Positions 1-3,511 of a DNA stretch of 52,994 nt are shown in pieces. Origin of the DNA: Escherichia coli (GTDB lineage: Bacteria; Pseudomonadota; Gammaproteobacteria; Enterobacterales; Enterobacteriaceae). The notes under the pieces were generated by a model that was not told the DNA's origin, did not search any database, and saw only the letters and a list, made by a program, of their open reading frames with translations. A program made the position numbers and the translations under genes. Positions within the stretch are counted from its first letter, which is position 1. Each line of letters starts with the position of its first letter. The stretch lies in the NCBI RefSeq assembly GCF_003334765.1, contig NZ_QOWT01000028.1; one strand, 5' to 3'.

Positions 1-62
1 AAATGTTCGTCTCATTCAAAAAACCTCCGCAACCCCATGTTTTCACATAACTGTTGCGTTGA

Positions 63-365
63 CCAATTGAATCTACAGCCGCGAACTTTAGCGAAGGTCA
101 CTATCTGCAGGTGGAAGTCGCCGCCCGCACCGCTGCCAGCAAGCAGCCGGAGCTGGCGCAAAAATTCCTCCAGTTTATGGTTTCTCCGGCTTTTCAGAAT
201 GCGATCCCAACCGGTAACTGGATGTATCCGGTGGCAAAGGTCACGCTGCCTGCCGGGTTTGAACAATTGACCAAACCGGCCACCACGCTGGAGTTCACAC
301 CAGCTGAAGTGGCGGCACAACGTCAGGCATGGATTAGCGAATGGCAACGCGCCGTCAGCCGTTAA
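63..365 (+). CDS. thiB: thiamine ABC transporter periplasmic binding protein, C-terminal fragment
   Basis: Translation ...[95 protein letters not shown] matches the TbpA/ThiB C-terminus; TAA stop at 363-365 overlaps the thiP start by 25 nt. The frame has stops at 48-50 and 60-62, so only 63-365 is clean. Confidence 0.8.
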   Translation, partial: PIESTAANFSEGHYLQVEVAARTAASKQPELAQKFLQFMVSPAFQNAIPTGNWMYPVAKVTLPAGFEQLTKPATTLEFTPAEVAAQRQAWISEWQRAVSR

Positions 366-1951
366 TTCCCGGCTGGTTAATTCCAGGTGTAAGCGCCGCC
401 ACGCTGGTGGTAGCGGTTGCGCTCGCGGCGTTTCTCGCCCTGTGGTGGAACGCGCCGCAGGGTAACTGGGTGGCAGTCTGGCAGGACAGCTACCTGTGGC
501 ATGTGGTGCGCTTCTCCTTCTGGCAGGCGTTTCTCTCGGCGCTACTCTCTGTCGTACCCGCGATATTCCTCGCCCGCGCCCTCTATCGCAGGCGCTTTCC
601 GGGTCGGCTGGCGCTGTTGCGTCTGTGCGCAATGACCTTGATCCTCCCGGTGCTGGTTGCTGTTTTCGGCATTCTTAGCGTCTATGGTCGCCAGGGCTGG
701 CTGGCATCGCTCTGCCAATCGCTCGGTCTGGAGTGGACCTTTTCGCCCTACGGCCTGCAAGGTATTTTGCTGGCGCACGTATTTTTTAATCTGCCGATGG
801 CGAGCCGCTTATTACTCCAGGCACTGGAAAACATTCCCGGCGAACAACGTCAGCTTGCCGCCCAGCTTGGGATGCGCGGCTGGCATTTTTTCCGCTTCGT
901 CGAATGGCCGTGGTTACGGCGACAAATCCCGCCGGTTGCTGCACTTATCTTTATGCTCTGTTTCGCCAGCTTCGCCACCGTGCTATCACTGGGCGGCGGT
1001 CCGCAGGCGACCACTATCGAGCTGGCTATTTATCAGGCGCTGAGTTACGACTACGATCCTGCCCGCGCGGCGATGCTGGCGCTGATCCAGATGGTGTGTT
1101 GCCTTGGGCTGGTACTGTTGAGTCAGCGATTGAGTAAGGCCATTGCGCCAGGCACCACGCTGCTGCAAGGCTGGCGCGACCCGGACGATCGTCTGCATAG
1201 CCGCATTTGCGACACGGTGTTAATTGTGCTGGCGCTGCTGCTGTTGCTGCCACCGTTACTGGCGGTGATCGTCGATGGCGTAAATCGCCAGTTGCCGGAA
1301 GTGCTGGCACAACCGGTGCTGTGGCAGGCGCTGTGGACCTCGTTGCGTATTGCGCTGGCGGCAGGTGTATTGTGCGTAGTGCTGACCATGATGCTGCTAT
1401 GGAGCAGTCGCGAACTTCGGGCGCGGCAAAAAATGCTGGCGGGTCAGGCGCTGGAGATGAGCGGCATGTTGATTCTCGCCATGCCGGGGATTGTGCTGGC
1501 TACCGGCTTCTTTTTACTGCTCAACAACACTACTGGCCTGCCGCAATCTGCGGACGGCATTGTGATTTTCACCAATGCGTTAATGGCGATCCCCTACGCC
1601 CTGAAAGTACTGGAAAACCCGATGCGCGATATCACCGCCCGCTACAGTATGTTGTGTCAGTCGCTGGGCATTGAAGGTTGGTCGCGCTTAAAAGTGGTCG
1701 AGCTGCGCGCCCTGAAGCGTCCGCTGGCGCAGGCGCTGGCTTTTGCCTGCGTGCTGTCGATTGGTGATTTTGGCGTGGTGGCGTTGTTCGGTAACGATGA
1801 TTTCCGTACCCTGCCGTTTTATCTCTACCAGCAAATTGGCTCCTATCGCAGCCAGGACGGCGCGGTCACCGCGTTAATTCTGCTACTACTCTGTTTTCTG
1901 CTGTTTACCGTGATTGAAAAAATACCGGGGCGAAATGTTAAAACTGACTGA
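341..1951 (+). CDS. thiP: thiamine ABC transporter permease
   Basis: 536-aa [26 protein letters not shown]..., multi-pass membrane protein; ATG at 341; position between thiB and thiQ. Confidence 0.95.
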
Positions 1952-2633
1952 TATCACCTGGCTTTACCACCATTTGCCGATGCGTTTTAGCTTAACGGTG
2001 GAACGCGGCGAGCAGGTGGCGATCCTCGGGCCAAGCGGCGCGGGTAAAAGTACCCTGCTGAATTTGATTGCCGGTTTTCTGACGCCAGCCAGCGGTTCGC
2101 TGACTATCGACAGCGTTGATCACACCACGACGCCGCCGTCACGCCGTCCGGTATCGATGCTGTTTCAGGAGAACAACCTGTTCAGCCACCTGACGGTCGC
2201 GCAGAACATCGGGCTGGGGCTTAATCCGGGATTGAAGCTGAACGCGGCGCAGCAGGAGAAAATGCACGCTATCGCCCGCCAGATGGGGATTGATAATTTA
2301 ATGGCGCGGTTACCGGGCGAGCTTTCCGGCGGTCAGCGACAGCGCGTGGCGTTAGCGCGTTGTCTGGTGCGCGAACAGCCGATTTTATTGCTCGATGAAC
2401 CGTTCTCTGCGCTCGATCCGGCGTTACGTCAGGAGATGCTGACGCTGGTGAGCACGAGCTGCCAGCAGCAAAAAATGACGCTATTGATGGTGTCGCACAG
2501 TGTGGAAGATGCGGCGCGGATCGCCACACGCTCGGTGGTGGTCGCCGACGGGCGCATCGCCTGGCAGGGTAAGACTGAAGAATTGTTGAGCGGTAAGGCG
2601 AGTGCTTCGGCAATATTGGGGATTACGGGTTAG
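1935..2633 (+). CDS. thiQ: thiamine ABC transporter ATP-binding protein
   Basis: Walker [10 protein letters not shown] and ABC signature LSGGQRQR; start taken at ATG 1935 ([13 protein letters not shown]...), overlapping the thiP stop by 17 nt, rather than the track start at 1914. Confidence 0.93.
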
Positions 2634-2746: not shown

Positions 2747-3511
2747 CTAAACCCCAACCACTTTACGCAAAATATCGATATACACCGGCATCAACGGGTG
2801 GCGAATTAACACCACCAGCGCCACCACGCCGATGGCAGAAATCAACGGCGTCAGCCACAACAAACGGCCGCGCGACAAATAATGACTTAAACGATCGGTT
2901 GCTTTACCGCTGCGCCATAACCGCCAGCACAGCCAGCCACCAACCCACAAAAATACCGCCGTCGCCAGCAGCAACCATTTAAACTCGCCGCTCTGCATTC
3001 CGGCTGGAATATCGATCGCCGCGCCCGCCAGAATCCCAGGCAGGAAGTAAAACGGTGGCCACAGCAGGCAGCCGATAATATTCGGCGTAATGAATTTTGC
3101 CACCGGCAGATCCAGCATTCCCGCCACCATTGGCACCAGCGGACGCGTCGGGCCAACAAAGCGACCGACCAGAATGGTGAACATGCTGTGTTGATGCAAC
3201 GCATGTTCAGTTTTATCGAGTAATGCTTTGTTTTTCTTCAGAAATGACCAGCGATGCAACGGCTTTTTAAAACGCCAGCCCAGCCAGAAGGAGATCCAGT
3301 CGCCCAGCAGACAACCGACAATCCCTGCCAGCCAGGCGTGCCAGAAACTTAACTCGCCGCTGCCAATCAGCGCTCCTAGCCCCGCCATCAGCACCGTACC
3401 GGGTAGAATCAAACCGACCAGCGCCAGCGACTCCAGAAAGGCCACCAACACCACCGCCATCAATGAATACACGGTAGATTGGGTAATAAAGTGTTCCAGC
3501 AATGCTTGCAT
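2747..3511 (-). CDS. yabI: DedA-family inner membrane protein
   Basis: 254-aa hydrophobic ORF MQALLEHFITQSTVYSLMAVVLVAFLESLALVGLILPG... matching YabI. Confidence 0.9.
   Translation of the reverse strand: MQALLEHFITQSTVYSLMAVVLVAFLESLALVGLILPGTVLMAGLGALIGSGELSFWHAWLAGIVGCLLGDWISFWLGWRFKKPLHRWSFLKKNKALLDKTEHALHQHSMFTILVGRFVGPTRPLVPMVAGMLDLPVAKFITPNIIGCLLWPPFYFLPGILAGAAIDIPAGMQSGEFKWLLLATAVFLWVGGWLCWRLWRSGKATDRLSHYLSRGRLLWLTPLISAIGVVALVVLIRHPLMPVYIDILRKVVGV

Follow-up and report, generated by a model that had tools for sequence, protein, structure and literature searches.

The window, that is, the whole stretch of 52,994 nt that was analysed, opens with the end of an IS30 element, which is followed by the 3′ part of thiB and by thiP and thiQ. 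The junction between IS30 and thiB lies at nt 77/78, and the 5′ end of the window reads AAATGTTCGTCTCATTCAAAAAACCTCCGCAACCCCATGTTTTCACATAACTGTTGCGTTGACCAATTGAATCTACA up to the junction and GCCGCGAACTTTAGC... beyond it. From nt 78 onward many genomes with an intact thiB matched the sequence at 100% identity, and by homology and translation nt 78–365 (plus strand) were assigned to a 3′ fragment of thiB (nt 697–984, codons 233–327 and the stop), a pseudogene remnant. The permease gene thiP (341–1951, plus strand) is intact according to its open reading frame and the RefSeq annotation, and its first 25 nt are shared with the end of thiB. The ATPase gene thiQ (1935–2633, plus strand) is likewise intact, as judged from its open reading frame and from the RefSeq coordinates of strain BS74R-D mapped to the window; an upstream TTG at 1914 was also listed as an ORF start. 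ThiB is the periplasmic thiamine-binding protein of the ThiBPQ ABC importer, which takes up thiamine and TPP.

Inspection of nt 1–77 indicated that they are the left end of IS30 on the minus strand; the element of 1221 bp runs off the window edge after its first 77 nt. The reverse complement of nt 1–77 agreed at every position with the initial 77 nt of the IS30 copies found in thiB of strains BS74R-D, G3/10 and CAVP776, where RefSeq labels the matching position 'IS30-like element IS30 family transposase'. The stretch is multicopy across E. coli genomes and plasmids. The 26-bp left terminal inverted repeat (IRL, TGTAGATTCAATTGGTCAACGCAACA) was found as an exact match at nt 52–77 on the minus strand; it was the single exact match in the window, where 0 would be expected by chance, and it is the same as the IRL of annotated IS30 copies. 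At the far end of the element it is partnered by an imperfect right repeat (IRR) in the carrier loci (L001, L002, L004 and L005), the tip of which reads TGTAGATTCAATCTGTCAATGCAACA. The transposase gene insI starts just inside the IRL, and translation of nt 1–15 (minus strand) gave its first five codons, ATG AGA CGA ACA TTT, encoding MRRTF (ATGAGACGAACATTT). The full protein could be read from the near-clone BS74R-D: it has 383 aa, begins with MRRTFTAEEK and scored 276 bits against the NCBIfam model NF033563 (IS30 family transposase), for which the cut-off is 80 bits. The complete 1221-bp element, from IRL to IRR, was present in all four carrier genomes, and the window stops 77 nt into it. IS30 of E. 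coli has a length of 1221 bp, 26-bp inverted repeats, the InsI transposase, copy-out-paste-in transposition and hot-spot targeting. The carriers agree with it in element length, inverted repeats, transposase, 2-bp duplication and target type, and nt 1–77 of the window are identical to its left end, with no difference of substance. It was also observed that an IS30 copy on plasmid CP148533.1 (H77) matched window nt 1–96 at 94.8%, that is, 19 nt past the IS30 tip into the thiB flank, which probably reflects the likeness of preferred targets and not common ancestry.

Nt 1–400 of the window were compared with 5,426 complete E. coli genomes. In 5,233 of them the match began only at nt 78, where an intact thiB precedes thiP; within the plasmid set, records that looked like chromosomes also began to match at this position. 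All 400 nt were matched by three genomes, G3/10 (NZ_CP060075), BS74R-D (NZ_CP063332) and CAVP776 (NZ_CM176338), which come from different laboratories and countries; in a fourth carrier, FMU073332 (NZ_CP017844), the match began at window nt 52. RefSeq annotates an IS30 between two thiB pseudogene fragments in G3/10, BS74R-D and CAVP776, where the element is 1221 bp long with its transposase antisense to thiB, and the 3′ fragment in carriers is tagged 'incomplete; missing N-terminus'. The gene order in the carriers was sgrR, the TPP riboswitch, thiB nt 1–698, IS30, thiB nt 697–984, thiP, thiQ and yabI.

The insertion point lies after thiB nt 698 of 984. Intact thiB reads ...GATAACTACGCC GC CGCGAACTTT... 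at the target, and the carrier junctions read ...TACGCCGC before IS30 and GCCGCGAAC... after it; the thiB 5′ half that borders the element ends in ...GATAACTACGCCGC, followed by the IRR tip. The length sum of the two parts, 698 + 288 – 2 = 984 nt, equals that of intact thiB. Nt 78–79 of the window were assigned to the right-hand copy of a 2-bp target duplication, GC, corresponding to thiB nt 697–698 (...TACGCC GC CGCGAAC... in intact thiB); the left-hand copy falls outside the window. The duplication was perfect in G3/10 and FMU073332 (...GCCGC-IS30-GCCGCG...) and carried one mismatch in BS74R-D (GC...AC) and CAVP776 (GC...GT). Target duplications of 2 bp are usual for IS30 (PMC9333248).

Over 28,000 aligned positions the window and BS74R-D showed just 2 differences and are thus clonal relatives. 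What lies to the left of the window is best modelled on the simple insertion in BS74R-D. One of the two differences concerns window nt 78, which is G in the window and A in the BS74R-D allele. The sole other difference in 28 kb is at window nt 21654 (G versus A in BS74R-D), within rsmA (ksgA), and the RsmA accession of BS74R-D, WP_203037252.1, is high-numbered, i.e. recently issued. Other genomes that were ~100% identical over nt 78–25000 keep an intact thiB, and the insertion is thus recent in the lineage of the window. Among the thiB::IS30 alleles of the four RefSeq genomes, all share the insertion point of the window; those of G3/10, BS74R-D and CAVP776 also share its orientation, whereas that of FMU073332 has the opposite one. 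The thiBPQ allele of G3/10 and CAVP776 is ~2.5% divergent from that of the window. A metagenome scan for either IS30 end at the thiB site, with the duplicated bases left free, returned no further copy, which was taken to indicate a rare allele and adds no evidence on prevalence or on the bases at the junction. A literature search for thiB together with IS30 returned nothing relevant, the ISCompare paper dealing with simulated insertions.

These results account for the broken start of thiB that had been noted in the sequence-only reading. A phase check of the window letters confirmed that TAA at 48–50 and TGA at 60–62 are in frame with the TAA at 363–365 that ends thiB, and a frame check that frame 1 has no stop from nt 1 until 268–270. 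The reading of the phase was sound, in that no reference thiB with an identical sequence and an open frame was found. It had also been stated that the translation is clean ThiB past nt 63; this applies from nt 78 (AANFSEGHYLQVEV...), but the residues at nt 63–77 (PIEST) belong to the IS30 inverted repeat. The two stops are statistically unremarkable, because nt 3–77 are non-thiB sequence read in an arbitrary frame, for which ~1.3 stops would be expected by chance in the 25 codons from base composition. Both are sequence of the IS30 left end, made up of the inverted repeat and the leader of the transposase gene, that happens to be read in the phase of thiB. A frame-1 ORF at 37–270 crosses the IS30/thiB junction out of frame with thiB; since it straddles the junction and nothing examined points to a gene, it was treated as a chance ORF.

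The position of the window edge has an explanation of its own. At the opposite end, an IS1 copy beside rpsT begins at nt 52919 (plus strand) and runs off the window edge after 76 nt, at nt 52994; it is not part of the thiB event. Records lacking IS1 at this place matched only up to window nt 52918, and IS1 beside rpsT is common to K-12 and thousands of genomes. The window thus ends 77 nt into IS30 and 76 nt into IS1, both of which are multicopy, and is most likely one entire short-read contig whose two ends are breaks at repeats. From the edge lengths of 77 and 76 nt, a de Bruijn-graph short-read assembly with a largest k-mer of ~77 may be deduced. The thiB edge is therefore assembly-related, not an error.

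We consider that the window begins 77 nt inside an IS30 that transposed into thiB, and that this explains the apparently broken start of the gene; a probability of about 0.93 was assigned to this reading. IS30 would have entered between thiB nt 698 and 699 and doubled the GC at 697–698, with its transposase gene facing away from thiP, on the minus strand of the window. thiB would thereby have been split into a 5′ part beyond the window and the 3′ remnant at 78–365, and the remainder of IS30 and the thiB 5′ half in the source genome would be as they are in the near-clone BS74R-D. thiB is accordingly a pseudogene, made so by insertion. The rearrangement junction that had been suspected in the first 60–75 nt was essentially right, and is the edge of the IS30 insertion at 77/78.

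The other explanations fared much worse against the same data. A frameshift or pseudogenising indel in an otherwise continuous thiB had been put forward for the stops, and the in-phase stops themselves are all that speaks for it. Intact thiB, however, reads ...GAAGAGAAAAAAGATAACTACGCC upstream of the junction, without similarity to window nt 1–77, which are identical to IS30 and have no thiB homology, and the genomes with intact thiB all cease to align at nt 78, the 5,233 matching from this position only. Alignment to reference thiB, as had been proposed, gave a breakpoint at 77/78 and no indel. The thiB homology ends at nt 78 and does not continue past the stops, as a small indel would require, and this explanation is refuted. 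An assembly artefact, in which a chimeric join or a collapsed repeat put an IS30 end onto intact thiB at the contig edge, would agree with the location of the junction at the extreme edge of an apparent short-read contig. Nevertheless, the base-exact junction was present in three independently assembled complete genomes, together with the 2-bp duplication and the full element, and the join falls precisely where the IS30 inverted repeat ends, on a high-scoring IS30 target. Such an artefact is thus highly improbable. The sequencing or assembly error that had been considered was rejected for the same reason, that the junction is not absent from independent assemblies (three complete genomes), and only the assembly-related position of the edge was retained from it. 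There is no frameshift and no sequencing error at the window start.

Somewhat less remote, but still improbable, is that IS30 does lie at the thiB site and that the source genome underwent a larger rearrangement, so that the element is bordered on its far side by DNA other than the thiB 5′ half. IS30 produces deletions, inversions and cointegrates through IR-IR junction intermediates (PMC9333248), and the far side of the element is beyond the window. Besides, the left and right flanks of several IS30 copies in viral contigs came from different targets and did not repeat each other directly, a pattern suggestive of exchange or rearrangement among IS30 copies. On the other hand, BS74R-D, at a distance of 2 SNPs in 28 kb, has a simple insertion with sgrR, the TPP riboswitch and the thiB 5′ part directly across the element, and a simple insertion was also observed in G3/10, CAVP776 and FMU073332. 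The simple transposition of IS30 into thiB was therefore preferred.

The same thiB dinucleotide has been used repeatedly. In FMU073332, IS30 (L002, 1806–3026) was found at the identical dinucleotide, again flanked by a duplicated GC, yet inserted the other way round, and by this arrangement it must be an independent event. The pair G3/10 and CAVP776 is set apart from the pair BS74R-D and window by SNPs that come as close to the element as 156 nt on its left and 162 nt on its right, and 2–3 positions differ between the IS30 copies of the two lineages. Separate insertions would be more parsimonious than the transfer of a tract of <1.6 kb. The opposite orientation in FMU073332 and the divergence of the carrier lineages thus imply at least three hits on the thiB site.

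In its choice of targets IS30 is known to favour near-palindromic hot spots, for which a symmetric consensus of 24 bp has been described (PMC9333248; Olasz 1998, cited in PMC12445084). An empirical weight matrix built from unrelated IS30 copies was used in place of this published consensus. The target profile was obtained from 34 IS30 left ends in 32 viral or prophage contigs and a further one from Pantoea, giving 17 unique half-sites; among species-representative genomes, the 45-nt IS30 left-end pattern was found at one locus only (Pantoea), which gave one half-site. The half-site pattern consists of an A-rich arm, GC, N, the 2-bp duplication, N, GC and a T-rich arm. On this empirical matrix the thiB site ranked 3rd of 54,389 positions (window and intact thiB region), with a score of 12.9 bits compared with a mean of –22.9 and an SD of 9.4, i.e. 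~3.8 SD above the mean. The core of the site, GCC GC CGC, is an exact fit to GC N NN N GC, and the A/T arms fit less well. The high rank fits the known hot-spot preference of IS30. Other top scores in the window were at 22136, 11115 and 21828 (14.4, 14.3 and 12.2 bits, respectively), and none of these positions is occupied. The target GACATATTAAAAAAAGCC GC GGCGTACTTCGCAAAGCT was observed to hold IS30 in both orientations in two viral contigs (L009 at 3214 and L039 at 8090).

The thiB site resembles natural hot spots such as the phage lambda LHS (Olasz et al. 1998, cited in PMC9333248 and PMC12445084) in being a recurrent, partly symmetric target. Like them, it has a GC N [NN] N GC core between an A-run and a T-run and is used in both orientations. 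Its A/T arms are weaker than those of the strongest sites (ATATTAAAAAAAGC...) and are offset relative to them. In a by-eye comparison with lambda LHS, the symmetry scores were unremarkable.

Variation was also observed in the two bases at the IRL tip. These bases (window 78–79, corresponding to 3078–3079 in both L004 and L005) are GC in the window, G3/10 and FMU073332, AC in BS74R-D and GT in CAVP776, and the dinucleotide on the IRR side is GC in all four carriers. The window and BS74R-D differ only twice in 28 kb, once at the IRL-tip bases, and one of just four differences in the ~5 kb flanks between G3/10 and CAVP776 falls there too. The variation could reflect a retained or partly repaired 2-bp spacer of an IS30 circle or dimer junction, and heteroduplex segregation or later nicking or activity at the IS end could also be its source. 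Consensus errors of long-read assemblies at IS boundaries could produce it as well. The wider proposal, that thiB nt 697–698 is an undescribed natural chromosomal IS30 hot spot with the variable IRL-side dinucleotide as a footprint of the transposition chemistry, is tentative, and we regard it as rather doubtful. If the footprint were true, it would provide a natural read-out of a step that has so far been studied on plasmids only.

With regard to the gene products, ThiB should be non-functional when split at residue 233 of 327. In BS74R-D, the thiB 5′ fragment would encode residues 1–233 of ThiB with a 27-residue tail, the stop being located inside IS30. The expression of thiPQ is probably poor, because the promoter and the TPP riboswitch are placed ~1.2 kb further off and behind an antisense IS30; moreover, as thiP and thiB overlap by 25 nt, the translational coupling of thiP to thiB would be lost. 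IS30 is said to be polar, and Dalrymple and Arber reportedly described transcription terminators on it in 1986. A consensus scan of both strands of the BS74R-D insertion gave no promoter-like or terminator-like sites, and an outward promoter able to drive thiPQ was likewise not found in it, so read-through was neither supported nor excluded by the scan. E. coli makes thiamine de novo, and for a thiamine prototroph the loss of ThiB or of the importer is tolerable.

The event itself is a standard IS30 insertion that is already known, since the allele is annotated as a pseudogene in four RefSeq genomes; only the recurrent, two-orientation use of the thiB dinucleotide and the variable junction bases are mildly new. 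The stops at the contig edge mark an insertion-sequence boundary and no sequencing problem, which has little import beyond correct annotation. That one thiB dinucleotide was hit repeatedly and both ways round is a neat illustration from nature of how IS30 targets hot spots, and those working on the mechanism of transposition may find the variable junction bases of minor interest. As for the organism, the source strain is very probably without functional ThiB, and perhaps without the whole ThiBPQ high-affinity importer of thiamine and TPP.
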